From: a virus
Reading direction: 5' to 3' (one strand)
DNA length: 64,000 bases
Virus record (IMG/VR): IMGVR_UViG_3300027973_002292
Location: 1 to 64,000 of that record
Under the pieces are notes generated by a model. It was not told the DNA's origin. It did no database searches and worked only from the letters and a program-made list of their open reading frames with translations. Both the position numbers and the translations under genes were made by a program. Shown here one piece after another: positions 23,981-49,951 of this stretch. How positions within the stretch are numbered: position 1 is the first letter of the stretch; the number at the start of each line of letters is the position of its first letter.

Positions 23981-23986
23981 AAATTT

Positions 23987-26900
23987 ATGGCAAGTTTACA
24001 AGGAACAACGGTTAATAATTACCTACGAACATTAGAGCAAGTAAGAGCTATGGGCTGGTATGGAACTCCTACAGGAACTTCTTATACTGCCCTTGGAGCA
24101 GAACTTGGCGTCTCTGGCGGCGAAGCATATTTGCTTTGCTACAATAGAGATACTAGCGCATATGGCGTATTAAATATAGCTGGCAGCGCGTCTAACTTAA
24201 GAATATCTGGATCGGTTTTTAATTTACAAACAGGCTCTTTACAGCAAGCAGGCAACCAAGTCCTCCACGCTGGTAACGTCGCGACTTACGCCCTGCCGAT
24301 AGGTGGAGGGACGTTGACTGGCGCTCTTAACGGAACCTCTGCGGCGTTTAGCGGAGCTGTTTCAGGAGCTTCATTGAGCATCTCAGGCGCAAGTTCTTTA
24401 AACAGGATAAATTTAAATTCAGCGACAAACGCCATTATACAGTACAGATCCCCAGGTCAAGGAACATCAACTCTAAACTTCCCTTTTTATAATAATGTAA
24501 GTAATGGGTCTATCTGTATAGAAATGGCAGATAACGACACTGGTGGACTAATGATCGACAATGAAGGTGTCACTGTTTATGGAGCTGGGGATATAGGAGA
24601 GGTTTTTAGAGTTATAGATGAAGATGTCTATCAATCGAATAGTAATATAACATTATCAAGAACATTCTGGATAAATCAAGGTCTAAACGGAGGAGGTGGA
24701 ATACTTGGGGCCTTTACAATATCCGGCAACACAGCCATTCACGCTGGTAACGTCGCAACGTATGCCCTTCCGATTGGAGGAGGAACACTCACTGGCGGAC
24801 TTAGCGGAACTACAGGTTCTTTTTCAGGTGATTTATCTATCGCAGGATATTATCAAATAAGAGGTGGTGACCCTACGATTACATTTAGAGACACAAATAA
24901 CAGAACGGCGTATATACATGTTAATAACGATATTTTTTATGTGTTAAGTGGCCCAGCGGATTCTGCTTTCGGTAATTGGGGTACAGTTGCTAATGGCAGA
25001 TGGCCTATGGAGCTTAATATATCAAATAATAATGCTACTTTTGGCGCAGACGTAAATGCAATTAGTTTTACTGGAGCAGGAACAGGTTTAACAGGAACCG
25101 CATCTAGTTTAAGTATCGGAGGTAATTCTGCTAATGTTAATATTTCTAATTTAGCCACACAACAAGTAAGTATATCTTTAGCTGCTGGTTCTTGGTACAC
25201 AATCGCCGCCAATGATAGCAATAGAGCTTCTGCAAAATTCACTATTACAGACACATCAAGCGGCTTACATCAAGCTATACATTTTTATGCTACCGCTCAT
25301 TACGGAACTGATTCAGGGGCAAAAATATCAGTAATAAGTAATACTTACTATGGTGGCCCTCCTGTTAGTGCAATAAAAATAATGAAAGGAAGCACCTATG
25401 ATGGAGCTATGGTTCAAATATATGCTATGAGCGCATGCGCTTTAACTGTTTCTATATATGATAATCAACAATCTAGCGGATGGGTAATTAAGAGCGGTGT
25501 GGTGTCTACTACAAATCCTGGAACTGTAGCGGCTTTTGCTTCTTTGACTACGATAGCGGCGGCGGTTGATTTAAGTGCCGCAAAATCATTTAGTGTGTCT
25601 GATGAAATTTATATTGGTGGAGCAACAACTCAGTATAAAGCTTTACATACTAATAACTACAACTCATATGCACTGCCGCTGTCGGGTGGAGCTATCACCG
25701 GGAACAGCACTTTCTCGGCGGATAACTATCTCACCTTTGGACCCAATTCATCCTGGAGTCGGTATCTACGCATCGGTGGAAATGGGTACACCGCTCCTGT
25801 GACTACAACCGCATCAGTTGTTACTACAAACGGCAACCTTCATTTGGATGCAGCCAAGGCAGCGGGTATGGCAATATACCTTAACTGGTATGGTGGTGCT
25901 GGTGGAACAATTTTTGGAAATGGATCTGGAACACAAGTAGGTGCGGTAGATAGTGCGGGTAACACTTCGTTCATTGGAACTCTGGCTATCACTGGCGCAA
26001 TCACTGGCGCTAGCTTTTCGGGTGCTGGTACAGGCCTCACTGGTACTGCTGCTAGTTTAACTGCGGGAGCTGTCCCGTGGTCAGGCATTACCAGCAAACC
26101 GACTACTCTAGCTGGGTTTGGTATCACCGATGCAGCAGCAATAAATGGTGCAAGTAATCAGACTTTTAGTGCCAGTGCAATTTATCAATACGAGTGGCTA
26201 AGAATTATGACGGATGCAGGTATTTACTGGCAATCTGGAACATATGCTGGTTGGCACATATATCCTCAAGCTGCCTGGGGGATGAGTTTAAGATCTGCAA
26301 GCACTGATTGTGGATTACAGCTTAGAAGAAGTGATAACACGCTTCTAGGCAGTCTGTATTCAGACGGAACAAGTATAGGGTTTTTAAACGCTTCAAATGG
26401 ATGGGGAGCTTCTTTTACAATTGCAGGAGCAATGAACAGAGGTTCTGTTCCCGGTTCATTGGTTACGGGTAATATATCTGGCAACGCAGGTTCGGCCACA
26501 AACGTCTCATGGTCGGGTATCACCAGCAAACCAACTACGTTGTCTGGATTTGGAATCACCGACGCCCTGCCATTGGCTGGGGGGGCGTTGACCGGAACTG
26601 TGTCTATTGATACCTCCGGTACAGGGGTTAACAGTACGGTGGCCATAAAGCGGAGCGGTCAAGGTGTTGTTAACTTTGGATCGTATGCTGGATCTTGGAG
26701 ATCCGCGTTGCAGATTCAAAGTAACGCTAACGACAGGATGCTGTTCTTTGTCCCTCCTGAGGCTGATTACCAGTACGGCGTAATTCGATCCATTAACGGA
26801 GGGTTGAAAATTGATGTCGGAGGAACAACAGGAAACGGCGGGGGTAACGCGATAAGCATTGAAACTTCTGGTGCTGTCTCGATGCCAGGGACGTTGAACG

Positions 26901-28721: not shown

Positions 28722-29975
28722 ATGTCCGTTCAGCATGCCAACCGAGGAGTAGTAAAAAAAGATTTACAGTTATATTATAACCGTGAATTTCCTAAAAGCT
28801 TTAGAGGACAAGCTACTACAAATATTGCATATGCTACCAACAGTTTTTTAAATTCAAATGGTAATTGGTGGGTGAATTCTGGAAATACTGTTTTTAATGA
28901 TAATGATACAACTATTGATAAACCAGTAATATTAAATGTAGATACTTCAAATTTAAGAATATTTAGTTCAACTGTTACGGTAGTTGGAAATCAACAATTA
29001 GGTTCATCAATTATTCCCATTTCAGGAAGCACTCAATATTCGATGTCTATTTATTATTGGTTTAGTGGAGGGTCCATGCAAGTACCGCCTTATGTAAGAA
29101 CGAATATTAACAATAATGACTTGGCGTATTTTGGATATAATGGAGATACAAATTATTTAAATTGGCCGAGAAGAACTTGGATACGATTAACTGCAACATT
29201 TACTACTCAAGCTAATGAAACAGGAGTGTATATGAGTAGTTATACAGGTGATACTGCTGGTGAAAAACTTGCGTATTTTGGTTATCAAATTGAACAAAAA
29301 GCTTATGTTACTCCATTAGTTTTAGGAAGTAGAACAGCTAATACTGTTGCTGGTGGTGGTGGTTTGTTGGATATGAGTGGAAATAATGTTAATGTAAGTT
29401 TATCAAATGTTGCATTTGATTCTGGTGGTTATTATTTTACTACAGCGGGGAGCAATTATATAAATACAGGAATAACAACATTACCAAGTAATACTCAATT
29501 AACAATTGATGTGTGGACAAAACCTACAAGTACGTCGCAAACTAAAACTTTAGTATCTAAATGGGGGTCTGGTAGTCAGTCAAATTTTTGTTTTTTATTA
29601 TTTTTAAATTGGTTTGCTCAAGGAAATATTTATTTTCTGGTGGGGAATTCTGCTGGAACTAATTATAGCCTACATTCTATCGCTCATAATTTATCTACAT
29701 CTGTTTATATCAATTATACAGTAGTATACGATAACGGATATGTTTCTTGGTATAGAAATGGAGTTTTTATTCAAACTGATACTAATGGCAGTCCGTTATT
29801 AAAATCAGTTACAACTGCTATTACAATAGGCGCAGATTTTGATGGAGGAAATCCAGATACATTGACGAGAAGTTATGATGGAACAATTCCAAATGTAAGA
29901 TTGTATAGTAGACCATTAACTGCCGCAGAAGTATTGCAAAATTTCAATGCAACCCGTACAACTTATGGATTATAA
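28722..29975 (+). CDS. LamG/concanavalin-like virion protein with carbohydrate-binding-like insert
   Basis: LTIDVWTKP, YRNG, VRLYSRPLTAAEVLQNFNATRTTYGL. Confidence 0.8.
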   Translation: MSVQHANRGVVKKDLQLYYNREFPKSFRGQATTNIAYATNSFLNSNGNWWVNSGNTVFNDNDTTIDKPVILNVDTSNLRIFSSTVTVVGNQQLGSSIIPISGSTQYSMSIYYWFSGGSMQVPPYVRTNINNNDLAYFGYNGDTNYLNWPRRTWIRLTATFTTQANETGVYMSSYTGDTAGEKLAYFGYQIEQKAYVTPLVLGSRTANTVAGGGGLLDMSGNNVNVSLSNVAFDSGGYYFTTAGSNYINTGITTLPSNTQLTIDVWTKPTSTSQTKTLVSKWGSGSQSNFCFLLFLNWFAQGNIYFLVGNSAGTNYSLHSIAHNLSTSVYINYTVVYDNGYVSWYRNGVFIQTDTNGSPLLKSVTTAITIGADFDGGNPDTLTRSYDGTIPNVRLYSRPLTAAEVLQNFNATRTTYGL

Positions 29976-29978
29976 AAT

Positions 29979-31211
29979 ATGAGTACAGTAAATAATGGGC
30001 CGCAAATAGTTAGGAGTGGATTGGTTTTAGATTTGGATGCTTCTTATATGAGAAGTTATAGTCCAAATGTTATGCCTAATCCTACCAATATTTTTGCTTG
30101 GTCTGGAACTGGTAATAATAACTGCACTCTTTCTGGAGATACTACCATAACTAGACAATATGGTTCAATACCTTTAAAAATGGTAATGACTGGAACTGAT
30201 CCTTATGTTGGAAGTTATAATAGTTCTATTTGGAATTTAGCTCCAGCAGCGTCTGGACAAACTTGGACTCTTAGTTTTTATGCCAAAGGAAGTGAAACAT
30301 TAACTGGAAATTGTTATATCTTTGGAGCGAATTCTGGAGGAGTATATATTGAAGCTGCTGCTACATCTTTTACTGTAACAACTAGTTGGCAAAGATTTAC
30401 GTTTACGACTACACTTGGCAATGCTTCTACGGCTTTTATTCAAATGAGATTTGGCGGATCAAGTGGACAAGTTGGAAAAACAATTTGGTGGGACGGTGTC
30501 CAATTAGAAAGAGCTTCCGCCGCAACAAATTTTAATCCATATTATTTTGGAAATACGAGTTGGAGGGATGTTAGCAGCAGCGGTAATATATTTAATTCAA
30601 CCCTCTATACATATCCAAGTTTTGTGCAAAGTGGCTCACAATCTTATTTTTCATTTATAAATAATGGAACAATACAAAATAATATTTATTGTTATTCTAC
30701 AGGATTAGTTACTGCCACAAGTACGCAGACACAATATACAAGATTGGGGTGGTTTTATCTGACATCATACAGTGACGCATGGAGTCCTATATTTCAAAAT
30801 GTAATAGGAAATAATAGTGATATGGGATTAACTGTATATAGTAACGGCACTATTCATTTTAGACAATATACAAATTCTATAACTGGAGGAACAGCTTCAC
30901 AAGATTATGGTGTTTCTTCAGATGGAACTGTATTAATTAACAGATGGAATTTTGCTGCTATTGTGGTAAACAGAACTGGTAATCAGGTGTCATTTTATAT
31001 TAATGGAAATTTTGATAGTACAAAAGCTATAAATGTTATAGGAAATTCTAATTCAAATGAAATGTTAATAGGTGGTGTTTATGCAGATTCTTATTCTGGA
31101 GCTAGAATGTTTAAAGGTAGAATTGCGAGTGTGTGTCATTATAACAGATTATTAACGGCGGCTGAAGTATCTCAAAATTACGAAGCAACAAAAACAAGAT
31201 TCGGATTATAA
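29979..31211 (+). CDS. LamG/concanavalin-like virion protein with CBM-like insert
   Basis: IVRSGLVLDLDA, TLSFYAKG...WQRF...WWDGVQLE, FYING, YNRLLTAAEVSQNYEATKTRFGL. Confidence 0.8.
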   Translation: MSTVNNGPQIVRSGLVLDLDASYMRSYSPNVMPNPTNIFAWSGTGNNNCTLSGDTTITRQYGSIPLKMVMTGTDPYVGSYNSSIWNLAPAASGQTWTLSFYAKGSETLTGNCYIFGANSGGVYIEAAATSFTVTTSWQRFTFTTTLGNASTAFIQMRFGGSSGQVGKTIWWDGVQLERASAATNFNPYYFGNTSWRDVSSSGNIFNSTLYTYPSFVQSGSQSYFSFINNGTIQNNIYCYSTGLVTATSTQTQYTRLGWFYLTSYSDAWSPIFQNVIGNNSDMGLTVYSNGTIHFRQYTNSITGGTASQDYGVSSDGTVLINRWNFAAIVVNRTGNQVSFYINGNFDSTKAINVIGNSNSNEMLIGGVYADSYSGARMFKGRIASVCHYNRLLTAAEVSQNYEATKTRFGL

Positions 31212-31214
31212 TAT

Positions 31215-33293
31215 ATGTCAAAAATATACTCTCCAAAAATCGTGCAAGATAGTTTAGTGATGTGTTTAGATGCATCAAATAATAAATCATATCCAACTGA
31301 TTTGCCTGTAAAAAATGGATTGTTGGTTTGGTTAGATGCTGCCGATGATACAACTTTTAGTTATAGTTCAGGAACTGTAGTGAGTCAATGGAGAGATAAA
31401 AGCGGATTAAATAATCATGTAAGTCAAGCCACAGTAGCAAATCAACCAAGTAGAAGTACAATAAAAAATAGCAGAAAAACTCTTGTTTTTGATGGGTCAA
31501 ATGATACTTTATTTAATGCAGGGAATGTATTTCCATCAAATACAACCGACTATACAAAAATAGCAGTCGTATATCAAACTTCAACATCTACTACTGGAAA
31601 CATAATAAGTAGTAAAACAGATACATCTGGAACTAATAATGCTCATGCATTTTATTTCGGCAATAGTACTTTTATACAATTATGGCATAACAGTACATTT
31701 GTTACTTCTCCAAATGCGTTAGCTATAAATACTTTAGGAGTTATATCTGGAACTTATATAAATTCATCTGGTTTGGGATCTTTATATGTAAATGGAACAG
31801 CTTCTGGTACGGGAACGACTGCCAGTAGAAATATAGTAAGAGATATACAAATTGGCGCAATTATTGATAGTAGTTTTTTTACAGGAGAAATTTGTGAAGT
31901 ATTAGTATTTAGTAGAGTTTTATCAGCTACAGAATTAAAACAAGTCCACACATATCTTGGACAAAAATGGGGTATATCTAATACTGATAGAAGTATAGTT
32001 GATTTGAGTAACAATAATAATAATGGATTATTTGGCAATGGAACTGTGGCAAATATGCCAGATTATGATTTTTATAACAAAGGAGCTTTTAAATTTAATG
32101 GAACTTCCGATTTTGTTAAAGTAGGACCGAACTCTTCATTACAAGTAAATAATGTAACAATAGCGGCTTTTTTTAAAACAGTAAATAATGGTCAAGGTGT
32201 TCAATTTATAGCTGGATATGGCGACACTGGAATTGCTGGATATTGGCTAGGAACTAGTGGCGGCCCGATAAGATTTTCTATAGGTGGCGGATCAGGAAAT
32301 TATTTACAACAAAGTTCTGGCGTCACTCCGAATAATGATCAAATTTATTATGTAGTAGGAACTTATGACGGCGCAAATCAAAGAGTTTATGTGGATGGAG
32401 TTTTGCAATATTCAGCGACTACAGTCACTGGTAATATATCTTATGCTGGCTTAACAGATGGATTTTTATTGGGTCAAGTGCAAGGATTTTCTGCTGCTAG
32501 ATATTTAACGGGTAACATTTATAATGTTTCTGTTTATAGTCGAGCTTTATCTCAAGCTGAAATAAGTCAAAATTACGAAGCTCTAAAGTCAAAATTTGCA
32601 AATACAATTGTACAACAAGGATTAGTATTAAATCTTGATGCTGGTAATCCATATGGTTATGCAGGAGCAGGTACGGTTTGGTATGATGTTAGCGGAAATG
32701 CAATAGATGCATCTGCTACTGGAAATATTAATTATAGTAAGTTATATAATGGAGTATTTTCAGTTTATCCATCAGTTAATAGTTACTTTGCCACATCAAC
32801 AGTGTCTGCTTTAAATTTAGGATCATCTTCTTTTTCAATAGAAGCTTGGGTTTATTTTGATGCTTCAGTTGCGTCAGATGACGTATATAGAGGAGTAATG
32901 AGTTTGGGTACAAATTCAAGTAATTACGTTTACATATCAAAATGGAGATCTGGTTTATATTCTGGTTTGTATGTTCAATATATTGCTGCGGGTGGCACAG
33001 TAACAGGAGTTTATCAAGCTAATGATTATAATCCAGTTTCAAGATGGACACACGTTGTTGCGACAAAATCTTCAAATGTTTTATATTTTTATGTTAATGG
33101 AGTTTTATATTCAACTGCAAGTAATTTAAATACGACATTTACAGGTAATAGTTATGTTCTTATTGCTAATGCTCATGCAGGAGTAGGAACTTTAAATGGT
33201 TACGTTGGGGAATCAAGAGTTTATAACACTTCATTATCTGCCGCTCAAGTTTTACAAAATTACAATGCTACAAAAGGAAGATTTGGATTATAA
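31215..33293 (+). CDS. Triple LamG-like virion protein
   Basis: Three LVxxLDA starts; YNTSLSAAQVLQNYNATKGRFGL at the C-terminus. Confidence 0.8.
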   Translation: MSKIYSPKIVQDSLVMCLDASNNKSYPTDLPVKNGLLVWLDAADDTTFSYSSGTVVSQWRDKSGLNNHVSQATVANQPSRSTIKNSRKTLVFDGSNDTLFNAGNVFPSNTTDYTKIAVVYQTSTSTTGNIISSKTDTSGTNNAHAFYFGNSTFIQLWHNSTFVTSPNALAINTLGVISGTYINSSGLGSLYVNGTASGTGTTASRNIVRDIQIGAIIDSSFFTGEICEVLVFSRVLSATELKQVHTYLGQKWGISNTDRSIVDLSNNNNNGLFGNGTVANMPDYDFYNKGAFKFNGTSDFVKVGPNSSLQVNNVTIAAFFKTVNNGQGVQFIAGYGDTGIAGYWLGTSGGPIRFSIGGGSGNYLQQSSGVTPNNDQIYYVVGTYDGANQRVYVDGVLQYSATTVTGNISYAGLTDGFLLGQVQGFSAARYLTGNIYNVSVYSRALSQAEISQNYEALKSKFANTIVQQGLVLNLDAGNPYGYAGAGTVWYDVSGNAIDASATGNINYSKLYNGVFSVYPSVNSYFATSTVSALNLGSSSFSIEAWVYFDASVASDDVYRGVMSLGTNSSNYVYISKWRSGLYSGLYVQYIAAGGTVTGVYQANDYNPVSRWTHVVATKSSNVLYFYVNGVLYSTASNLNTTFTGNSYVLIANAHAGVGTLNGYVGESRVYNTSLSAAQVLQNYNATKGRFGL

Positions 33294-33343: not shown

Positions 33344-34225
33344 ATGAGCGAAGACATGCAACTAAAGTGGAAAGTAACAGCAATGGACTGCTACCCTGAG
33401 TTCAGCGGCGCAACCGATTATGTGTTTAACGTCCACTGGGACTGCTTGTCTTATTATAACGGCGTAAGCGGCGGGCCATACTATGGTAGAGTTTATAGCG
33501 TAACTAGCATTCCAGCCGCTCCTGGGCCAGCCACGCCTTACCTTGACTTGCAGGAAAATCAAGTGTTAGATTGGGTTTATTCGGTTTTTCAATCTGGAGA
33601 TAAAGAAAGATTTGAAAACTCATCAATTCAACAAATAGTTAACCAAATTGCTCCTCCAGTAGTAACTCCTCCAGCTCCTTGGCCCGCAGATATATTTCCA
33701 GTTATTGCCCCGTCCATTACAATACAGCCTCAATCTGGCATTTCTTTATGGTCTGGGCAGAATATCTATGTGTCATTAATGGCTGCCGGCCAACCTCTAA
33801 ATTATCAATGGAGAAAAGATTCTGAAAATCTATCAGGAGTGAATGGAGACGGATTACAAATTTTAAACATACAACTAGATCAAGCTGGGCTCTATGATGT
33901 TGTAGTATCGAACTCTTTGGGGTCAGTTACAAGTTCTGGGTGCCAAATTTCTGTCGCTCCTCCAGTTGTTCCAGTGATAGTAGATCAACCAGCGGGAGGA
34001 GAAGCCGTTACTGGATCTTCATTTATATTTAATGTAATAGCGACGGGATATCCGACTCCATCTTATCAATGGATGTTTAATAGTTCAGAGATTTCTGGAG
34101 CTGTATGGGCAGGATATGATTTACCGAATTTGCAAGAGAATCAAGCCGGAGATTATACGGTTAAAGTATCTAATGCTGCTGGAGAAGTTTTGAGTAATGT
34201 TGCTCATTTGAATGTTGTAATTTGA
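33344..34225 (+). CDS. Fibre-associated protein with two I-set immunoglobulin-like domains
   Basis: N-terminal WKVTAMDCYP...VFNVHW domain; two Ig repeats PxIxxQP...YQW...AGxYxVxVSN. Confidence 0.8.
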   Translation: MSEDMQLKWKVTAMDCYPEFSGATDYVFNVHWDCLSYYNGVSGGPYYGRVYSVTSIPAAPGPATPYLDLQENQVLDWVYSVFQSGDKERFENSSIQQIVNQIAPPVVTPPAPWPADIFPVIAPSITIQPQSGISLWSGQNIYVSLMAAGQPLNYQWRKDSENLSGVNGDGLQILNIQLDQAGLYDVVVSNSLGSVTSSGCQISVAPPVVPVIVDQPAGGEAVTGSSFIFNVIATGYPTPSYQWMFNSSEISGAVWAGYDLPNLQENQAGDYTVKVSNAAGEVLSNVAHLNVVI

Positions 34226-39541: not shown

Positions 39542-42500
39542 ATGTCTACTACAATTACAGCGGGACTTAGAGTTGATACGTCTGCGGCTTACAAAGATAT
39601 TGATCTTTTTAAGTCAAGAATAAATAAAAGCTTCAGTCAACCACTAGGAAGAATTAGTGGTGACGCAGCAGAGTTTTCTAAATCACTGCAAGCAGCCGCT
39701 GCCCGCGTAACAGCATTCGGGGCTACTACTGGAAGCATTTATTTAGTTACTAAAGCTATCTCAGAAACAGCAAGAGCCACAATAGAAGTAAATAAACAGT
39801 TAACAGAACTAAATACTTTCTTAGGAGAGTCTGAGTCTAGTCTTCAGAACTTTAGCAAAACTTTATTTTCAATCGCTAGAAATACAGGCTCAACTTTTTC
39901 TGACGCTACAGAAGCTGCTAAAGAGTTCGCCAGACAAGGCTTGTCAACTGAAGAGACATTAACCAGAACTAACGATGCGCTTGTCTTATCTAGAATTTCT
40001 GGTTTAAATTATGCTCAATCGGTAAACAGTATAACGACTGCTCTTAACGGTTTTAGTAAAGAAGCTTTAACTAGCACAGATATCATAAATAAGCTAATTG
40101 CTGTTGACACAAGATTTGCAGTTAGCTCTAAAGACCTAAGCGAAGCTCTAACCCGCGTAGGAAGTGCTGCTGAAGAAGCCGGCTTGTCTTCTGATCAATT
40201 GGTTGCTACAATTACTACTGCCCAACAAATCACTGGTCGTGGCGGTGCTGTAATCGGTAACGCTTTAAAAACAATCTTTACAAGAGTAAGAAGACCAGAA
40301 ATATTAGATCAGCTTAAGCAAATCGGAGTAGTCGTTACTGATCAAAATGGATCTCTGCTTAATGCTATTGATATTCTTAAGAACTATACGAATGTAACAA
40401 AAAATCTAAGCCAAGCTGAAAAATCAAGAACAGCAGAGCTTCTTGGCGGTGTTTATCAGATTAACCAATTACAATCAGTCATTAGAGACTTGGGAAGCGC
40501 CAACAGTATTTATGCAAGCTCTCTTAAGATTTCTATAGGAGCTACAGATGAGGCTATTAAGAAAAATTCCGAATTAAATAAAAGCTATGCTGCGCTAATT
40601 AATGACACTGCAAATTTAGCAACGCAAGTTGGGTCGGATATAGGTAAAAGCTTGTTTGGGCCAATTATTTCTGGCGGGGCTGGTGTTACAAAAGCAATAT
40701 TAGAATTTCTTTCTCCAGAGAGCATTGCTCCTCAAATTGGTAAAGCTGGGCAAGAAATTGGAAAAAATTTATCTAGAGAAATTGGTAAGGGAGTTCTAGA
40801 CACGCTTGGTAATGCATTGGTTTTCGTTGGAGCGCCAGTTGCGGCTGTAGTTGCTGGGTCTATAGGTAAAAGGCTGCTTTCGTTTTTAGGCGCATCAGTA
40901 AAAACGCAAATAAAAGGCATCACAGATCCATTAGGGAGAGTCGTTACGGGAGGCTCTTTCAGCGGAGATAAAGAAAGAGAGCAATTAAATTTAATAAATC
41001 AAATTTCAGATGTTGTAAAGAAAAATAATTTTATTGGTGAAGCTACCGTTAAGGGAGTCTATAATGAAGGCAAAGCTAGAAGAGAGGTTTTAAAAGAAAT
41101 TTTAGCACAAAATTCTCTACTAGAAAGACAAGCAAATTTAGCCCAAACAATTTTTAATACAATAAGTAAAATAAAGCCCACTGTTACAACTATAGGGCAA
41201 GTAAATTCTTTTGGATTAAATCAAGTTAACCCAAGGAGAAATGCTAAAGGAAGATTTGTTGCTTCTGGATATATTCCAAATTTTTCAATGGGATTAGCAG
41301 AACAAGAAGAGTCTGCTGCAAAAGGGTTCGGAGCCAAAAATCCTAAGGCTCGATTAATCAGAGCTACAATCAAAGGTAAAACTGGCCCAGTAATGATTAA
41401 CGACGAAGAGGATGTGGTTCCTAATTTCGCTGGCACAGGAGAAACAGCAATCATTCCTAGATACAGAAACGTTAAAGACATCCCCAGAATGGCTAAGGGA
41501 TATGTTCCTAATTTTAGTAACGCATCAGGAAGTTTTGGAACTGTTTCTAAGATTAATGAAAGCCAAGTTAGAAAAGAGTTTTTTTCTGGAGCAGGACAAT
41601 CAGGAGCAGGAGAAATAGCTAATGAATTTTTGGCTTCTAGAAAATTATCTGAGCAGATTCAAGCAAGCAGAGAGCTTGGTTATCAGGGCATGCGTGGAGG
41701 ATATATAGGAAAACTTTTTGAGGCTCCTCATACATATGGCACATTAGAAGACTCTATTAGATCTGGATCTATAGTCAAAGGCTTAGCTCCGGGAAAAACC
41801 GCCAAAGATATCGGAGATAATCTAGATAAATATACAGGAGAGTATAAAAATTATTATGAATTAGTAACAAATTTGGGAAGACTATCTGCTAAACAAATCA
41901 ACTCTGGAAAAGCAATGGAGGCCAGAGATTTAGCTAATTTTGGAAATTTAATGCTTAATAAAAAAGCAGAAGATCTTATTACTAAAATAGTTTCCAGAAA
42001 AGGGAGCGATAGACTTGTAGGGAAAATGAATAGTTCTTGGCAATCTACTAGTAGAGTAGCAGAAGGATTAGCTAGACAAGGAGCAAGAATTAGTATAGTT
42101 GATCCAGGTATTTTTGGAGGCTTAGGCGAAAAGAGAAAAAAAGAATTAGCAAAACTTGGCTATCAAGATAATTATCGTGAAATGACTGGGGCAAATGCTG
42201 CTGGTTATATTCCTAATTTTGCTAAAAAAGATAAATATAAATTCCCAAATATTTCTTCTAATAAGATGGAAGCAAATATTGGCAAAAATTTTGAAAAACT
42301 AACCCCTGAGAATCAAAGATATTTCGCAAGAGCTTACGAAGATTACAACAATTTAATTAAAGTTTTTTCTAAGGCTTCTGGAACTTCTCCAGAAAAGTTT
42401 GCTAATGTAATGTCTGCCCTTTCTCCTGCTAACCCATTAGAGAGAAACGCATTAGACGCTTTAAGATATAACTTGTTCTACCAAAAGAAACTCTCAACAG

Positions 42501-45500
42501 CAGCTTCTCCAATTTTCATAGACGAAAGAGAAATAGGGTCGGTAAAGGCTCAAACATATGGAGCAAACAGAACTAAAGCTGCAAATTTACTTGTTGGTTT
42601 AGAAAAGCTTACAGGAAATAAGAGAAAATCGTTCGTAAACAACATGTTAGATCCATTTCAAAGCACGGATGTTACAGTTGACTACAGAGCTCAAGGCGAC
42701 GCATTGAATAAACAATTTAATGTAAAAAATGCCCCTTCTATGAATAGGGAGCAATATGATAAAGTTTCCCAAGCGTTCAGAAACGTTGGATCTAAAGCAG
42801 GCGTTAGTGGTTTGGGGGTTCAAGCAGCGACTTGGATTGGTGGAAGAATGGGTTCTAAAGCTGCAAGAGGACAAGATTTCAATAGAGGAATTTTAAAATT
42901 TTTCTATGATAATCCAGATAAGATTAGTTTAGAGAATCTTGAGTTTTTGCTTTCTGTTCCAGGAAAAGGAAAGGCTAGAAAGGATTTCTTTAAAAACGCT
43001 TCAGCGATGGGTGTTTCTAAATTGGGATCTGATAGTCTTATTTCAATTCCAAGGGTAGGCGGGTATGTTCCTAATTTTGCAGGGTTTAATTTATCTACTA
43101 TAAGATTCTTGACTAAAGCTAGTGCTAAAATGTCTGGTTCAGTTCTTTCGCCTAAAACGTTAATAAAATTTGCTACTGGAAAAGGAAAAGTGGAGGATCT
43201 TGTAAATCCATTCTTAGATTTCTTAAAAAAACCTGCTGATCTTATTAATAGCCCTCAAGATTTAGAGGATGCAAAATCTGTTATAAATCTTATATTTAAA
43301 AATAATCAAGCTAGAGAAATGGCAGCTAGCAGGCTAGCTCCAATTATTAATGAGTCAAGTTTTAGTGTTAAATCTCAAGAAGAAGCGGTTTCTACAGGAA
43401 TACAATACCCCGACGGCGGAAGAGGCTATAGAGACTATAGAGATTTTTTACGTTATAAATTATTGGGCGGCCAAAAAGAATACGAAGAGTATGTAGGCAA
43501 CGAGTATGGCCCAAAAGCTTTAATTAAAAATAAAGATGGAAGTTATAGATTCAATCCGAAATCTACACAAGGACAATTAGAGTTGTCTGATGTTAGACAA
43601 GCAGCTAAAGTTTTATTTTCTACTCCAGAACAAATTGCTGAATCGAGAGCATTAATGGTTGGCAGGGATGTCCAAAAACAGTATAAAGCAAGAAAATTAG
43701 GACCAGAAGATAATGTTCCTGGACCTAACCCATTTTTAGGCTATACATATAAATTAGGAAGATTTATTGGTAACGTAGGAAAGAAAAGAAAAGCTGTAAA
43801 ATACACAGATAGATGGGATGTAGAATTACACCAAGGAGAAAGAGATGTGATGGAGAATTTTTTAAAAAACACATCTGAAATTTCAGATTTAGAGACAAGA
43901 AAACAAGTCGCCAATTATTATATAGATAGAGACTTAAGCGATAGTAGTTACGCTGGAGATATAAATAGTTTAATAGTGAAAGAATTATTATCTTCTATTC
44001 CTGGAGCAAACCCAATACTTTTAAAAGGCGCAGCTAGAGCTCCAAAAGGAGAGAGCATTTTCGCAAAAGGCTATATTCCTAATTTCTCTGGCTTATCTGA
44101 TTCAATAAGCAGAGAGAAATCTATGACTGGTCTTCCGGTTTCTCAAATCATGGCTCATTTTGATAAGAGCGGAAATCCAATAGCAGTAACAAACAAAAAA
44201 GATGAGCCTAATGGTCTCAAAGATGTAGTCCCAAATTTTGCACCGAGAGTAAAGGTTCCAAAAACTCCAAGAGGTAAAAAAGGAACAACTGCGGCTCAAG
44301 TTTCTGATTTATTTAGTTCTTTTTTTGGTGAGTCAATTGGAATAGGGCTTTTTCAATCTTTATCAAGCACATTAGCTGACAGAGAAGTCTTGTCTGAAGA
44401 TGTTAATACAGCAACGCAAATTGGTGCGCCTGCTCTCCTGGCGATTTTGCAGGGCATGAGAGGCTTAAAAGCTTCTAAAGGTCAAAAGCTGGGAGCAAGA
44501 GCTGCAGCGTTAGGCGTACCAGTAGCTTTAGGGGGAGCGCAAGCAGCCATGGGGTTTTATGCTTCCAGATCTGTTGGCGAAGATCTCCAAAGAAGAAAAC
44601 TTGAAAAAGAATCAGACAAAGCAGCAAAAGAGTTTAAAGACTTAACAGAAGGAACTCAAGAACTTGCAGATACTCTGTCCAAATTAAATGAATCTTTTAA
44701 AGACGCCTCATCGTCTCCAGAGCAATTATTTAATTTAAGTAAAAGAGCCTCTGAGTTAACAAAAAACGTAACTAAAAATAATCCTGCACTAGCAGCGGCA
44801 ATTTCTTCAGAGCCTAATGTAGAAAAGAAAATTAATTTAATAGAAGATGCTCGCAGAAAAGCCTCTCAACAACAAGCGGTAAAACAAGAAATCATACAAT
44901 TCGAAGGGTCTAAAACAAAATCTCCAGAAGATTTAATTAATTTATTTTCTAAAGAAATTTCTTTGGCTAATGATAAATTATTGCAATTAAACAGCAAAGA
45001 TTTAGTGCCTGCAAATTTTGATAAAATTCTTTCTGATGCTGATTTAGTGCCTTTAAAAACTTTCTTTGACCTTCAAAAAGAAGAGATAAAAAACAAATTA
45101 ATCCCATCATTTTTAGAGGCTGTAAAATTAGAAATAGAATACAATAAAATAAGTAAAGAAAGCATTAAACAAATAAAAGTTTTAAAAAGCGAAGAGATCA
45201 AAGCTAGCAAAGAGATAGAGGGAAAAAAAGTAAGAAGACAAGCCGGTTTAGAAGCTTTAAAATCGGGAGCTGAAGAGCTGAAGCCTTTTGCCGGTCAATT
45301 CGGGGCTAGAGCAGCTATTTCATTCGAGTCAGATCTTCAAAAAACAAAAGAGTCTATTTCAGCAATTACATCTTTCAGAACTCAAATAAACACAAAGCTA
45401 ATAGACAAAGACTTAAAACTTCCAACTAATGTTACTGATAAATTGCAAGGAATTCAAACTCCTGGGCAAGACGCTGGGGCTGTATTAGCAGAATTATCTA

Positions 45501-48500
45501 AGACTCCTGGTTTAAATGAAAAACAAATAGAAGCTCTAGAAGAATTAATTACTACTAATGAAACCCAATCTAGAGAGCTTAAAAAGATTTCCGACATTTC
45601 AGAAATAAATAAAAATGCTCAGCTTAGGGTTTTAAGTATTCAAGAAAAGTTAACCTATGGCGGCGGCATAAAAACCAGCATAGACTCTAGATCAAGAATC
45701 GATTCTATCAATGCTCCAATAAAGGGCCTTCTAGAAAGCAGACTAGGAGCAACTCTTGGTTCCGAAAGATCTCAAACTTCTGGAATGGTTAATGTAGTTA
45801 AATCTATTAAAGACTTATATCCTGGTCTTATAGAAAATTCTAAAGCTCTTGGGTCTGTAAGAGATAGGTTAACTAATCTTAGAGCTAATGACTTGAGAAA
45901 AGATCTTTTTAGGAACGCTTCTTTATTAGAATCCGCTGGCGGATATGGAGATATTCCTGGAATGCTAAGGGCTAAAGGGCTTGATTCTGAAGGATTGAAA
46001 ACTTTAGCAGCTACTCAAGCCGAAGCGGAGCTATCTGGAGGGAACTCTCCTCAAGAAACTACTAGATACTTAGCGGATGTAATTAAAGCCGCTACTGCTG
46101 ATTTAAATCTAACAATACAAGAAGGCCAACAAATTAAGGCTTTGCAAGAAAAGACTGCTGCTCCAGTAGCAGAAATAAATAAAGAAACTGAAGTCGCTAG
46201 ACAAAAATTTTTAACTTCGCTTACAGATTCTGTAAAAAAAGCTTTTGGAGAAAAAATAGACGTCCAAACTGTAAACATATCTAATGCTAGTGTCAATATA
46301 ACTCCGTCTTCGACATCTCAATCTGGAGAATCTTCTGGCGCAGCCCAAGCTAGGGCTTCCATGGCCACTATGGCATCTGGAGCGTCTGGTCCCAGAAGCA
46401 AAGGGTTTATTCCTTCTTTCTATAACCCCTTAAGAGAGGCGGTCCAAAGAGAAAGCCAATATGTTCCATTTAGTTCAATAAGAATTAACAAGAGCAATAA
46501 ATTAATAAATCAAAATAACCCACTAGGTTTAGGCGTGACTAATACAATTGATGAGCCAAATGGTTTAGCAAGTATTGGTTTAGCTTCAAAGGGATATGTT
46601 CCTAATTTTGCTTCTAAATCTAAAATTTTAGATAAAGTTCTAACAGATAAAAGTTTGTATGGGCCTAAAATATCTAAACAAGCTCAAGGATTGGCTAAGA
46701 AAGGTGAATTATGGGGTCTTGATTACGCAGCTTCTAATCCAAAGAAGGGAGATTACGTTCTATATAAAATAAAACCAGATGGCTCTTTAGGAGAAAGAGG
46801 TATGCCAAATAAAGGCGATACCGTTTTGAGCCACGTTGCAGCAAGCAAGTTCTTAGGAGGAGTAAAAGATCTCCTTCCTATATCTAAATTAGCTGAACCT
46901 CCAAAGAGTCAAGAAGCTTCGTTGGCTGGCGGAACTATTTTACCAACTTCAAGCATAGATAAGATAATCAGAGATGTTAAAAAGAAAGGCGGATCAGCTA
47001 CAGATCTTCAAAAAGCTGTAGAAACATTTGCTAAACAAAATTTATCTACATCTAATTTCTTAATTAAAACTGGAGTAGGCGATTTGTCAATCCAAAGCAA
47101 AGGAGTTTTCGGAATCAATTCAAAGCCACTAGATTCTTCAGCTTATGGAACAATTTTAAATGATTATGGAAGAGGAAAAGGTAAAAGTTCAGATTTCTTT
47201 ATTCAAGAAAAAGCTCAACTTTCTGATCAACATAATGAGTCAAGAGTACATGTAGCTATTGATGGGAAAGGCAACGTTAAACTTGTAAGGAATGGAACTA
47301 TAGACAAATCAACAGGAGGGAACCTTGCTAAAGGGTCTTATAGAAGAGCTGCGGAAAGAGCCGCTTTGCAAGCTGCCGAAGCATTCGTTAAAGCTAATCC
47401 AAAATTGGCAAAAAATCAATTTTTAGGTTTAGATGTAGGAGCGGTCGCAGCTACAGAAGGTAAGAGACTTGGGTTAACAACAAAACCTTTTAGCGAGTTG
47501 GGCCAAAAATTTAATCCAATTGTTTTTGAAATAAACCCAACAAGCAGAAGAGGAAGTCAAGGCGGATCTGGATTCGTTTCCGCTGAAAACCCTTTTTCAA
47601 AAGCAAGCCCATCTGTTTTTAATTCTATTTTATCAAGACTTGGAGTTAAATCAAATAATAAATTAGTCCAATCTAACGTTTTAGAAGCCTTATCTAAGGG
47701 AGTAATGGGAAATGATACATTATTAGGATCTGTAAAAAATAAAATTGCAGATACAAATATTCCATTTCCAAGCTCATTTTTTGGAAAAGTCAAAGGAGCT
47801 TTTTCAAGCAGTTCTTCTAAAGTTAAGTCTTTGTTCCAGAATGCTGGAGCTAAAATTTCAAATCTTGGCAATTCAGTTTTTGGTTCAGTTGGCTCTAAGT
47901 TTTCTGGTGTAACCGACAAAATTGGAGCTGGGTTATCTGGTCTCACTGGAAGAGTTAAAGGAGGCTTAGGGGGCATGGCGGCTGGGTTATCTGGTCTCAC
48001 TGGAAGAGTTAAAGGAGGCTTAGGGGGCATGGCGGCTGGGTTATCTGGTTCCTCTGGAAGAGTTAAAGGAGGTCTTTCTGGAGTTTTGACTGGATTAGGA
48101 TTTTTGGGCAATGTGCAGCAAATAGGGGAAAATAGGGAAGCTGATAGAAATTTAGAGGAGTATCTTTCAAAAGCAGCTGCTACATCCATTATACCCGCTG
48201 CGGCACTTGGTCTTACAGACTTTCTTGCGGGGGGGAAACTTTCGGCTAAGCATGAGGTTATTAAGGGTAAGATAGGTAAGGTAGCATCGAAAGGTTTACA
48301 AGCCGCTTCAGCTTTTAGCACCGCTGCCGAATCAGCAACAGAGTTTAGAGAAGGAAATTTCGGATTAGGGGCAGTAAAAGGAGCCGAAGCGGCAGCTTAT
48401 GCTGCTTCGCTGTTCGAAGGGGTAGGCAAAACGTTACCTAAGGGAAAAGGCCTTTTAGGCTCGCTTGGTAATGTTACTCCAAAAGCTTTATCTCAAGTAG

Positions 48501-49951
48501 GCGGAAAAGCATACGGAATAGGCTCTGCTTTGGGCTTAGGCGCAGAGATAGCTAAAGCTAAGGATAACGCTATAGCTGAAGACTATTCTGACATACTATT
48601 TGGCAAAAAAGAAGAGGATATAGATCCTGAGACTGGAGAAGTGACCAAGGGAAGATCTATACTAGGTGCAGGATTCGATGTTTATGGAACCGCTATGGGT
48701 GCTATAGCTGGCGGACCAGTTGGTCAAGGAGTAGCTGCATTTAAGATAGGCTATAGAGCCGGAAATGTAATAGAAAATCAAGCTGGCCTTGGAGAAAAAC
48801 TCGGCAAAATATATGAAGATAAAATCAATAAAGAAAGAGGTGGAGAAATAGCCATTAGAGAAGCTAGATTAAAAGCAAAGAAAGAGCTCTTTAAAGACGC
48901 AAAAGATCTTGAAATCAGGATAGCTAAAATAGAAGAGCAGGGCAAAAAAGGCGTAGAAGAAGAGAGAATTAAAGGAGCAAAAGGTCTTGCTGAAGTTTAT
49001 AAGGGATCTCAAGCCGATAAAGAGAAAAACGACAAAGAAAAAACAGCCCCTTTGAGAAAAGGAATTATAGAAGGTATTGTAAAAAATCAAGAGGCTAATG
49101 GCTTATTCACCTCAAGAGACAAGGCCAATTACTTGATGAGCCAAGAAGCTATCTATGGAAAATTTAAGCCCGAAGAATTTGCAGACAAGGAACTCTACAA
49201 GTCTTACGAAGCTTATTCTAAAGAAAGAGAAACTACTCAAGCAAGAGAGCAAAAATTTAATTCTGCAGTAATGAATCCAGAAATGGCTGGATCTCAAACC
49301 TATAAAATTGATCAATTTAGAGCCGAATCAGAAAGACAATCTGCTATGTTAGCTTCTGCGCCAAAAGACGCTTTAGAAGAAGCTATGAGAAGGGGAGTCT
49401 CTGTTGAGCAGGTAATAGAAGAGAGAAAAAAGATTAATAAATCTAGAGGCTTTATTCCTAACTTCTCTAACGCTTACAATAGAGAAAAATTAGACATCCT
49501 TAGAAATCCAGATTACTCTGGCTATAGAAACGCTGTTCCTCAGCCATCTAAATACTATAAAAATATAGTAAAAAACAGCGCAGAGATTGAAGTCCCGGCA
49601 GCTGAGGTTTATAACAGAATGGGATATTTTGGAGCAACCCCAAAGAACCCTTCCGAGCAATACGCTATTCTCAATCCAGCTCAGCAATCTAAATTGGGAT
49701 ACGCTTCAGGCGGATTCGTGCCAAACTTTGCTGCTGAACAATTTGCTGGCGCTGTTAGTGACGCTATGCAAAAAGCGCTATCTCCATTAATAGACAAGGT
49801 CGGAACTTCAGTTAGTAACTCTAATGTTATTAATGTAAGCGATCAAAGATCTTATCAAACTGGCTCCGATAGAATTACTGGTATAATGGAATTCTTATAT
49901 TCTCAATTCCCTAAGGAAATGGGAAGACAAATGGGCCCTAAACTAGTATAA
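39542..49951 (+). CDS. Tape measure protein (3469 aa) with embedded enzyme-like domains
   Basis: N-terminal TMP core (EFARQGLS...DKL/NKLIAVD...GAVIGNALKTIFTR...LKQIGV); position after tube and chaperones; 11 PNF-type motifs delimiting globular inserts. Confidence 0.88.
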   Translation: MSTTITAGLRVDTSAAYKDIDLFKSRINKSFSQPLGRISGDAAEFSKSLQAAAARVTAFGATTGSIYLVTKAISETARATIEVNKQLTELNTFLGESESSLQNFSKTLFSIARNTGSTFSDATEAAKEFARQGLSTEETLTRTNDALVLSRISGLNYAQSVNSITTALNGFSKEALTSTDIINKLIAVDTRFAVSSKDLSEALTRVGSAAEEAGLSSDQLVATITTAQQITGRGGAVIGNALKTIFTRVRRPEILDQLKQIGVVVTDQNGSLLNAIDILKNYTNVTKNLSQAEKSRTAELLGGVYQINQLQSVIRDLGSANSIYASSLKISIGATDEAIKKNSELNKSYAALINDTANLATQVGSDIGKSLFGPIISGGAGVTKAILEFLSPESIAPQIGKAGQEIGKNLSREIGKGVLDTLGNALVFVGAPVAAVVAGSIGKRLLSFLGASVKTQIKGITDPLGRVVTGGSFSGDKEREQLNLINQISDVVKKNNFIGEATVKGVYNEGKARREVLKEILAQNSLLERQANLAQTIFNTISKIKPTVTTIGQVNSFGLNQVNPRRNAKGRFVASGYIPNFSMGLAEQEESAAKGFGAKNPKARLIRATIKGKTGPVMINDEEDVVPNFAGTGETAIIPRYRNVKDIPRMAKGYVPNFSNASGSFGTVSKINESQVRKEFFSGAGQSGAGEIANEFLASRKLSEQIQASRELGYQGMRGGYIGKLFEAPHTYGTLEDSIRSGSIVKGLAPGKTAKDIGDNLDKYTGEYKNYYELVTNLGRLSAKQINSGKAMEARDLANFGNLMLNKKAEDLITKIVSRKGSDRLVGKMNSSWQSTSRVAEGLARQGARISIVDPGIFGGLGEKRKKELAKLGYQDNYREMTGANAAGYIPNFAKKDKYKFPNISSNKMEANIGKNFEKLTPENQRYFARAYEDYNNLIKVFSKASGTSPEKFANVMSALSPANPLERNALDALRYNLFYQKKLSTAASPIFIDEREIGSVKAQTYGANRTKAANLLVGLEKLTGNKRKSFVNNMLDPFQSTDVTVDYRAQGDALNKQFNVKNAPSMNREQYDKVSQAFRNVGSKAGVSGLGVQAATWIGGRMGSKAARGQDFNRGILKFFYDNPDKISLENLEFLLSVPGKGKARKDFFKNASAMGVSKLGSDSLISIPRVGGYVPNFAGFNLSTIRFLTKASAKMSGSVLSPKTLIKFATGKGKVEDLVNPFLDFLKKPADLINSPQDLEDAKSVINLIFKNNQAREMAASRLAPIINESSFSVKSQEEAVSTGIQYPDGGRGYRDYRDFLRYKLLGGQKEYEEYVGNEYGPKALIKNKDGSYRFNPKSTQGQLELSDVRQAAKVLFSTPEQIAESRALMVGRDVQKQYKARKLGPEDNVPGPNPFLGYTYKLGRFIGNVGKKRKAVKYTDRWDVELHQGERDVMENFLKNTSEISDLETRKQVANYYIDRDLSDSSYAGDINSLIVKELLSSIPGANPILLKGAARAPKGESIFAKGYIPNFSGLSDSISREKSMTGLPVSQIMAHFDKSGNPIAVTNKKDEPNGLKDVVPNFAPRVKVPKTPRGKKGTTAAQVSDLFSSFFGESIGIGLFQSLSSTLADREVLSEDVNTATQIGAPALLAILQGMRGLKASKGQKLGARAAALGVPVALGGAQAAMGFYASRSVGEDLQRRKLEKESDKAAKEFKDLTEGTQELADTLSKLNESFKDASSSPEQLFNLSKRASELTKNVTKNNPALAAAISSEPNVEKKINLIEDARRKASQQQAVKQEIIQFEGSKTKSPEDLINLFSKEISLANDKLLQLNSKDLVPANFDKILSDADLVPLKTFFDLQKEEIKNKLIPSFLEAVKLEIEYNKISKESIKQIKVLKSEEIKASKEIEGKKVRRQAGLEALKSGAEELKPFAGQFGARAAISFESDLQKTKESISAITSFRTQINTKLIDKDLKLPTNVTDKLQGIQTPGQDAGAVLAELSKTPGLNEKQIEALEELITTNETQSRELKKISDISEINKNAQLRVLSIQEKLTYGGGIKTSIDSRSRIDSINAPIKGLLESRLGATLGSERSQTSGMVNVVKSIKDLYPGLIENSKALGSVRDRLTNLRANDLRKDLFRNASLLESAGGYGDIPGMLRAKGLDSEGLKTLAATQAEAELSGGNSPQETTRYLADVIKAATADLNLTIQEGQQIKALQEKTAAPVAEINKETEVARQKFLTSLTDSVKKAFGEKIDVQTVNISNASVNITPSSTSQSGESSGAAQARASMATMASGASGPRSKGFIPSFYNPLREAVQRESQYVPFSSIRINKSNKLINQNNPLGLGVTNTIDEPNGLASIGLASKGYVPNFASKSKILDKVLTDKSLYGPKISKQAQGLAKKGELWGLDYAASNPKKGDYVLYKIKPDGSLGERGMPNKGDTVLSHVAASKFLGGVKDLLPISKLAEPPKSQEASLAGGTILPTSSIDKIIRDVKKKGGSATDLQKAVETFAKQNLSTSNFLIKTGVGDLSIQSKGVFGINSKPLDSSAYGTILNDYGRGKGKSSDFFIQEKAQLSDQHNESRVHVAIDGKGNVKLVRNGTIDKSTGGNLAKGSYRRAAERAALQAAEAFVKANPKLAKNQFLGLDVGAVAATEGKRLGLTTKPFSELGQKFNPIVFEINPTSRRGSQGGSGFVSAENPFSKASPSVFNSILSRLGVKSNNKLVQSNVLEALSKGVMGNDTLLGSVKNKIADTNIPFPSSFFGKVKGAFSSSSSKVKSLFQNAGAKISNLGNSVFGSVGSKFSGVTDKIGAGLSGLTGRVKGGLGGMAAGLSGLTGRVKGGLGGMAAGLSGSSGRVKGGLSGVLTGLGFLGNVQQIGENREADRNLEEYLSKAAATSIIPAAALGLTDFLAGGKLSAKHEVIKGKIGKVASKGLQAASAFSTAAESATEFREGNFGLGAVKGAEAAAYAASLFEGVGKTLPKGKGLLGSLGNVTPKALSQVGGKAYGIGSALGLGAEIAKAKDNAIAEDYSDILFGKKEEDIDPETGEVTKGRSILGAGFDVYGTAMGAIAGGPVGQGVAAFKIGYRAGNVIENQAGLGEKLGKIYEDKINKERGGEIAIREARLKAKKELFKDAKDLEIRIAKIEEQGKKGVEEERIKGAKGLAEVYKGSQADKEKNDKEKTAPLRKGIIEGIVKNQEANGLFTSRDKANYLMSQEAIYGKFKPEEFADKELYKSYEAYSKERETTQAREQKFNSAVMNPEMAGSQTYKIDQFRAESERQSAMLASAPKDALEEAMRRGVSVEQVIEERKKINKSRGFIPNFSNAYNREKLDILRNPDYSGYRNAVPQPSKYYKNIVKNSAEIEVPAAEVYNRMGYFGATPKNPSEQYAILNPAQQSKLGYASGGFVPNFAAEQFAGAVSDAMQKALSPLIDKVGTSVSNSNVINVSDQRSYQTGSDRITGIMEFLYSQFPKEMGRQMGPKLV
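47927..48072 (+). repeat. 54-bp tandem repeat x2.7 inside the TMP (AGLSGLTGRVKGGLGGMA)
   Basis: Identical units at 47927-47980 and 47981-48034, partial third copy. Confidence 0.92.

Follow-up and report, generated by a model that had tools for sequence, protein, structure and literature searches.

A segment of a phage tape measure protein (TMP), at about aa 662–861 of 3469, is predicted from its sequence and from structure models to fold as a minimal protein-kinase-like (PKL) domain. The TMP is encoded by a single open reading frame (ORF) on the + strand (39542..49951) of the IMG/VR virus record IMGVR_UViG_3300027973_002292, a 127.6-kb linear viral contig with an estimated completeness of ~84%; the window that we analyzed is its first 64 kb (positions 1 to 64,000). 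A first-pass annotation of the DNA had proposed a protein-kinase-like domain inside this protein, at 41519–42196, and that proposal is now supported by fold models, a profile match and invariant catalytic residues. On balance, we favor a reading in which the module is a minimal PKL kinase cassette that leaves the virion along with the TMP and phosphorylates a target in the host, probably a protein. This suggests that the phage would supply the cell with a ready-made kinase at the very moment of infection.

The carrier was identified as a TMP by both Pfam and PHROG matches. Pfam PhageMin_Tail (PF10145) matches aa 113–301 (E 1.4e-28), 13 of the 14 PHROG matches are to tape-measure families, and the protein combines an N-terminal PhageMin_Tail/TP901-type domain with great length and a tail gene upstream. 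No second ORF of at least 80 aa overlaps 41519–42196 on either strand. TMPs are virion components and are ejected at infection, and the kinase-like module would be virion-delivered because the protein that carries it is a TMP.

Conserved kinase motifs in the module

Five kinase-like motifs had been reported in the TMP frame; each was found at its expected position, and each occurs only once in the protein (these and the other module features below are all on the + strand). The Gly-rich loop SGSFGTV (41525..41545, starting at TMP aa 662) aligns to the kinase Gly loop. It is followed by the beta3-like VRKEF (from 41567, aa 676), which holds K678 (41573..41575), the equivalent of the VAIK Lys, and by the helix-C-like EIANE (from 41612, aa 691). 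The latter is present as described, with the refinement that the conserved Glu is its second E, E695 (41624..41626), which falls in a long helix (residues 35–69) of the structure model described below. The catalytic-loop-like RDLANFGNLML starts at 41924 (aa 795) and includes D796 and N802 (DLANFGN, 41927..41947), and IVDPG (42095..42109, from aa 852) is the DFG equivalent, with D854 directly after a model strand (199–201). As first noted, the D-to-N spacing is one residue above that of HRDLKxxN (6 here, 5–7 across the family). An insert of ~50 aa had been described ahead of DPG. It proved to be a conserved element of ~40 aa (aa 807–845, 41960..42076) that separates the catalytic loop from the DFG-like Asp and forms three helices in two models rather than a disordered loop; it adjoins the invariant N806, contains the invariant K815 and is followed by the invariant G847. 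The module also lies, as claimed, between two copies of a repeated motif, G[YF][IV]PNF, at aa 653–658 and 888–893. The upstream junction motif reads KGYVPNF (aa 652–658, 41495..41515), with its G, P and N invariant in the 12 aligned sequences and a predicted local distance difference test score (pLDDT) of ~65, outside the fold; the downstream one reads GYIPNF (aa 888–893, 42203..42220) and is a linker with pLDDT <50.

Relatives were collected with an exhaustive phmmer scan of the 226-aa segment against 1.84 billion representative proteins, which returned 8 proteins at E<=1e-3, and with word-seeded searches, which gave 11 further proteins; the module family is rare. One match was discarded as spurious and kept out of alignments and counts: P0009, a repeat protein of 1051 aa (E 1.2e-4 in 5 stretches) whose similarity was put down to low complexity. 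Twelve modules, 29–91% identical to the window's, were aligned for conservation (mean column identity 44%). Twenty columns are invariant, six in the flanking PNF motifs and 14 inside the module, which spans ~230 columns. Half of these 14 are canonical nucleotide-binding or catalytic residues (G663, G666, K678, E695, D796, N802 and D854), which are those singled out in the first-pass annotation, and the other seven are F680, P729, K746, G751, N806, K815 and G847. The same invariant set was obtained with a re-ordered 11-sequence alignment. Judged from these sequences, the motif pattern goes beyond chance. The kinase motifs are also much plainer in the distant relatives than in the window's module: their Gly loop is a complete GxGxxG, the Lys sits in 'GKK-F' and the Glu in 'AKEF', the catalytic loop is of the 'D-L-H-x-G-N' type, and the DFG-like stretch reads 'G-x-x-x-x-[VI]-D-P-G'. 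The relatives stop 5–15 residues past DPG.

Sequence similarity and predicted fold

A family profile built from the 12-module alignment was searched against 177,635 distinct PDB sequences. There were 87 matches at E<=10; the top 27 (E<=0.14) are all protein kinases, as are 56 of the best 60 of the 87. The best match is a calcium-dependent protein kinase (3is5_A, E 8.9e-6). The profile alignments pair the Gly loop, the invariant Lys and the invariant Glu with the kinase Gly loop, the AIK Lys (K678 with that of 3dxn_A) and the alphaC Glu (E695 with that of 3is5_A), and they place 'A-r-D-l-v-g-k-s-g-N-l-v-l-N' opposite 'HRDL--KPENLLL', with a 2-residue gap. The MADS6 defence protein-kinase model of NCBIfam is matched weakly by 3 of the 12 members (best E 2.1e-4). 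The window's module searched singly gave less: against Pfam there was no kinase, the sole match being a viral movement protein (E 0.07), and phmmer against the PDB found nothing below E 0.18. No kinase family was found when the 12 members were compared with PHROGs, and the ESM Atlas returned unnamed clusters (best score 0.81), which were uninformative.

The window's module was modeled with AlphaFold2 (AF2) from a 12-row alignment, giving a pLDDT of 83.0 and a predicted template modeling score (pTM) of 0.82. In the model, the N-lobe has strands at residues 15–19 and 24–29, the second bearing the Lys, and the long helix C with the Glu. Short strands and a helix come next, followed by a strand (92–96) with K746 and helices at 103–108 and 116–137, then the D..N loop, a strand at 152–154 and helices at 156–167, 171–180 and 182–194. 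The strand before the DPG Asp leads to a final helix (211–220) and to a disordered linker that runs into the next PNF motif. A model of the module from a relative, P0007, has the same architecture (pLDDT 82.0, pTM 0.78), including the three-helix insert (helices 146–156, 159–171 and 175–185). Based on the AF2 model, the structural alignments and the profile match, the putative protein-kinase-like core was placed at aa 662–861 (model residues 11–210, 41525..42124).

For the window's model, the top Foldseek rows are all PKL proteins, with Ark1 first (E 1.5e-2), followed by Bud32, ERK7, OspG, PRPK and PKC. When VIA-align was run on Foldseek's top 1000, Rv3197 ranked first (Z 8.5, root-mean-square deviation (rmsd) 3.1, 127 aligned) and PRPK/Bud32 came next (Z 7.3–7.8, 141–147 aligned); the kinase alignments cover model residues 11–210/238. 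We also ran a wide VIA-align search that is independent of Foldseek, comparing the window's model with 48,161 representative chains. Its best 50 rows (Z 8.3–5.5) are all kinases or kinase-containing complexes, where for six complex entries the identity of the chain was inferred from title and length. Rv3197 (Z 8.3, rmsd 3.7, 135 aligned) and Bud32 in 8k20_B (Z 7.8, rmsd 3.5, 142 aligned) lead this list, ULK4 is next (Z 7.6), and Cph001, Ark1, Rio1/2, MPH, APH, PknE, OspG and WaaP are also on it. The P0007 model gave 36 chains at E<=1e-3 in Foldseek, with kinases throughout among the matches listed; the best is 9ay7_A (1.7e-4), followed by APH(2'')-IVa, TNNI3K, MEK1 and CDKL1. A structure-based check of the proposed PKL fold therefore came out in its favor, as both models retrieve protein-kinase-like folds only. 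The fold evidence draws its weight from how uniform the list is, taken with the sequence-profile match. Among the features expected of a PKL domain, an N-lobe sheet and helix C on a catalytic core, a Gly loop, the beta3 Lys and alphaC Glu and a D..N loop are seen, and the invariant D854 after its strand is a candidate DFG-type Asp. The proposed meeting of the K, E, D, N and D residues at an ATP site has indirect support, as the profile pairs the Gly loop, Lys, Glu and D..N loop one by one with those of calcium-dependent protein kinases of known structure and the five residues do not vary in the family.

What kind of kinase, and what it would act on

The module falls short of a Hanks-type kinase on three counts, namely its Pfam score, its missing C-lobe and its HRD motif. 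In the reading that we favor, it would nonetheless bind ATP-Mg and transfer phosphate. It would sit on the TMP as one cassette among several, separated by G[YF][IV]PNF linkers. While in the tail it would be kept extended and non-native, as the lumen of the tail tube is too narrow for several folded copies of a 25-kDa domain. It would leave with the TMP before the DNA, refold in the host and phosphorylate its target ahead of any phage gene expression. The closest functional analogy would be a minimal effector kinase like OspG, passing unfolded through an injection machine and active without a C-lobe. A protein substrate is most likely, since Ser/Thr kinases account for all the significant sequence matches.

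A number of results weigh against this reading. At the sequence level, Pkinase (PF00069) had no match at E<=10 in the module, in the 12 members or in the whole 127.6-kb record (controls in the scan of the record did give matches), and among all Pfam kinase models the 12 members produced a single match at E<=10, to ABC1 (E 0.11). The His and Arg of HRD are not conserved, with A-R-D in the window and AND, AYD, TSD, VDD or ALD in relatives; the catalytic loop is 0–2 residues above the canonical length and varies by two residues; and the first Gly of GxGxxG, which is Gly in 9 of the 12 members, is replaced by Ala in the window's clade. At the structural level, the model has no activation segment or APE, no helices F–I and no C-terminal substrate-binding lobe. 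Foldseek against the PDB found nothing at E<=1e-3 for the window's model (best 1.5e-2, template modeling score 0.3–0.4), and VIA-align itself rates Z values of 7–8.5 as 'middling'. Bud32 and RIO, the best-known minimal kinases of such a shape, act mainly as ATPases. As for delivery, the kinase lies in the N-terminal third of the TMP and ATP is in the cytoplasm, and we infer its arrival there; no peptidase domain able to free the cassettes was found in a Pfam scan of the TMP.

Among the alternatives, the one that survives best, though we think it rather unlikely, is that the module is an active PKL phosphotransferase with a non-protein substrate. Its substrates might be small molecules, as for APH/MPH, or else a glycolipid of the envelope (as for WaaP) or nucleic acid (as for Ark1), and the enzyme would then act at penetration or on a host signal or metabolite. 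The structural comparisons lend this some weight, as Rv3197 (ABC1-like), the capreomycin phosphotransferase Cph001, Ark1, MPH, APH(2'') and WaaP score like protein kinases (Z 6.1–8.5), APH(2'')-IVa is the second match of the P0007 model, and the protein-substrate-binding lobe is absent from the model. The D-x-H-x-x-N-like loop of several relatives also resembles the APH/choline-kinase motif. Against this, the significant profile matches are only to eukaryote-type Ser/Thr kinases, no APH, choline-kinase, Kdo or RIO family of Pfam matched at E<=10 (ABC1 did once, at 0.11), and the C-terminal substrate lobes that small-molecule kinases have of their own are missing here too.

An improbable alternative is an ATPase or nucleotide-dependent switch, like Bud32/PRPK and RIO, that would serve in handling of the TMP itself, such as its refolding or release after ejection. 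The best full-length structural matches are indeed Bud32/PRPK (the 141–147 aligned residues at Z 7.3–7.8) and Rio1, Rio2 and RIOK3, all without a C-lobe, and the kinase is kept in every family TMP seen, though these TMPs were found by searching with it. On the other hand, ATP is unavailable in the virion or the periplasm, the sequence similarity is to conventional kinases and not to Bud32 or RIO, and the swapping of divergent alleles (see below) fits an effector under conflict better than it fits a conserved assembly part.

Still less probable is a pseudokinase or structural filler, whose fold would be kept as a spacer or plug in the tail. The failure of Pfam Pkinase, the degenerate Gly loop and HRD and the varying length of the catalytic loop are what such a domain might show, and a folded domain would be hard to accommodate in the tail tube. 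Pseudokinases typically lose at least one catalytic residue. We hold this alternative unlikely because the catalytic residues are invariant: the five catalytic or metal-binding residues and the two Gly-loop glycines are unchanged at 29–91% identity, and they are among only 14 such columns in ~230. Finally, a chance resemblance of motifs that are individually short, in a non-kinase segment whose own sequence has no Pfam or PDB kinase match, was given almost no credence and was rejected given the profile match (E 8.9e-6) with correct pairing, the best 50 fold rows being kinases and the Foldseek matches of P0007 at E<=1e-3.

Cassette architecture of the tape measure protein

The motif that flanks the kinase recurs through the TMP. 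There are 12 copies of [IV]P[NS]F, nine of them as G[YF][IV]P[NS]F, spanning 41273–49729 (aa 578–3396); residue shuffles gave a mean of 0.08 and a maximum of 2 in 2000, and the window's 34 remaining ORFs, with 16,131 residues between them, have one copy. The motif also bounds modules in TMPs of ~40% identity, as G-L-[IV]-P-N-[FY], and one relative has G-G-F-[IV]-P-N-L. In both AF2 models it is an unstructured linker. Candidate roles for it are as a junction for recombination, as a site of processing or in contacting a chaperone or the tail tube.

The full-length members of the family are all giant TMPs (2613–5338 aa) with an N-terminal TMP domain common to them, and PhageMin_Tail was found in 6/6 distant relatives scanned and in 9/9 closer ones (precomputed Pfam). 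So far, the module has been found only in giant TMPs. When stand-alone forms were sought with the profile among proteins of 116–441 aa, only fragments on short contigs (P0020 and P0021) were found, and a search at 432–2000 aa gave one fragment (P0011). These length-restricted profile searches argue weakly against a free-standing form of the module. Searching the module with tblastn against 50,697 phage records gave no match. The loci of relatives were sought as well, with no match for P0001 (viral and metagenome contigs) or A3 (genome and viral contigs). P0004 and P0006 each have two kinase modules in tandem. P0006 (5338 aa) also appears by eye to repeat another module three times at about aa 1300–2320; its pattern, 'HGT ... 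G-x-[YM]-F', is reminiscent of ADP-ribosyltransferase-like domains.

We compared the window's TMP with 16 relatives, module by module, using BLAST (as all were recruited via the kinase, they have it by construction). In P0014, the kinase is 89% and a neighboring DUF7178 module 91% identical to the window's, on a backbone whose identity is only 52% over the N-terminal portion and 29% over the coiled portion. P0018 is the reverse: its backbone is 86% identical, and the kinase in the same slot is only 34% identical; in addition, the order of the DUF7178 module and a 336-aa module is swapped. The 336-aa module is missing from P0003 and is replaced by ~200 different residues in P0012, and P0015 and P0016 have ~240 additional residues ahead of the kinase. 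The breakpoints match the PNF motifs at the resolution of a protein comparison. Taken together, these sequence comparisons indicate that the kinase is a cassette, delimited by G[YF][IV]PNF, that passes from one TMP backbone to another.

Other modules vary in the same way: among TMPs that are nearly identical elsewhere (P0003 and P0012–P0019), they come and go, change order or give way to different ones. The DUF7178 module is located right after the kinase (42209–43066, aa 890–1175; Pfam E 8.3e-21, also PHROG 3842), and it travels with the kinase in P0014. Two more globular modules are found at 43067–44074 (336 aa, aa 1176–1511) and at 46598–47641 (~348 aa, aa 2353–2700); neither has a Pfam match at E<=1 or a meaningful sequence match in the PDB. 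Between PNF motifs there are also paralogous mini-modules, at 44075–44227 (aa 1512–1562) and 46409–46597 (aa 2290–2352). These are 40–47% identical even in the most distant TMPs (P0004, P0006, P0007 and P0010), which is above most of the surrounding protein.

A broader and more tentative proposal is that of a 'polyvalent TMP', in which giant TMPs would serve as a delivery scaffold for unfolded cargo cassettes and the kinase would be an effector acting before transcription. We regard this as possible. The cargo (the kinase, DUF7178 and others) would sit between helical ruler segments at the G[YF][IV]PNF junctions and would be exchanged between phages by recombination there; after threading through the tail it would refold in the host. 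The kinase would be a new clade of effector that, for instance, disarms defence or redirects host machinery. The kinase is the sole cargo present in every family TMP seen so far, a set of TMPs that was found by searching with the kinase.

Genomic setting

The window has a G+C content of ~35%, its genes are almost all on the + strand, and no tRNA genes were found in it. The phage belongs to a deep, uncultured lineage, because its terminase (5614–7452) is at best 24–29% identical to any in the 50,697 phage records, the best matches being terminases of Bacillus and Clostridioides phages. A tail protein gene (33344–34225) is located upstream of the TMP ORF. Farther upstream of the tail genes, at 17684–28636, are two very large ORFs (2098 and 1549 aa), and the second lies in a stretch of clearly higher G+C content (0.47, compared with ~0.35). 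These are followed at 28722–33293 by three successive ORFs (417, 410 and 692 aa) that all match the PHROG virion structural protein family 8510, which suggests a tandem paralogous set.

Implications

To our knowledge, the enzymatic modules of TMPs are cell-wall hydrolases, which act outside the cytoplasm. Our full-text literature searches, whose coverage excluded most subscription journals, found no report of a kinase inside a TMP. If an ATP-dependent TMP kinase is confirmed, part of the TMP would have to enter the cytoplasm and refold into an active enzyme, and phages would have an added route for ready-made effectors, delivered before the DNA. The kinases predicted in the polyvalent proteins of phages (PMC5512222) would be extended to a new carrier. 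The module would also represent a clade of kinases that lies below the threshold of every Pfam, PHROG and NCBIfam model. The swappable, motif-bounded architecture marks the neighboring unannotated modules as candidate effectors, and it may provide a model from nature for getting foreign proteins into phage tails.

Comparison with known systems

Enzymes known in TMPs include the peptidoglycan hydrolase motifs of mycobacteriophage TMPs and the C-terminal peptidase of T5 Pb2. Like the proposed kinase, these are catalytic modules inside a TMP that are used at ejection. Their target, the cell wall, lies outside the cytoplasm, and they do not need ATP, whereas a kinase needs ATP and hence cytoplasmic delivery.

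Bud32/PRPK and the RIO kinases give the best overall superpositions (8k20_B, Z 7.8; 6wqx_D, Z 7.5; 1zp9_A, Z 7.0), and they are similar to the module in size and in having no activation loop. Unlike the module, they are housekeeping ATPases or kinases, with roles in tRNA modification and ribosome maturation; no sequence match to them was found, and they do not have the three-helix insert. The type III secretion effectors OspG and NleH (4bvu_A and 4q5h_A) resemble the module in having a tiny core without a C-lobe that is injected via a narrow conduit, and OspG is also a structural match (Z 6.2, rmsd 3.7–3.8, 132–133 aligned; sixth in the Foldseek ranking). They differ in that no sequence relationship to OspG is detectable and in that they travel through the secretion system of a bacterium, not through a phage tail. 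Activation of OspG requires host E2~ubiquitin.

Phage T7 makes its gp0.7 kinase after infection, by expression of the genome that has entered, and the virion does not contain this kinase. The first-pass annotation had offered it as a parallel, which is a loose one: what holds is that gp0.7 is a kinase that acts on host proteins early in infection (PMC5512222).

The nearest described systems are the truncated Ser/Thr/Tyr-type kinases of polyvalent proteins, which the source paper presents as a 'distinctive monophyletic group' of predicted effectors (Iyer et al, 2017; PMC5512222). According to the paper, these kinases have lost the C-terminal subdomain and kept the residues for ATP binding and phosphotransfer, they have an insert between the conserved His and the Asp for phosphotransfer, and two conserved residues mark the family: a Glu that precedes strand 2 and a Gln on the N-lobe's last strand. 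The carriers are packaged in the head (MuF, DarA and N4 RNAP types) and are processed by metallopeptidases. The terms 'tape measure', 'tape-measure' and 'TMP' do not occur in the paper. The TMP module shares several of the properties described there: a virion-delivered multidomain carrier, an absent C-terminal subdomain with intact active-site residues, an insert in the catalytic region, suspected recombination of cassettes and a predicted modification of host proteins at invasion. In the TMP module, the insert is ~40 aa long with its three helices and separates the catalytic loop from the DFG-like Asp, and it may correspond to the insert of the paper. Unlike the polyvalent-protein kinases, the TMP module has an invariant K746 and no conserved Gln in what the model predicts to be the last N-lobe strand (92–96), and it has no conserved Glu between the Gly loop and the beta3 Lys. 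We leave it outside that clade, with which it was compared by description only, and regard it as a truncated effector-type kinase on a new carrier.

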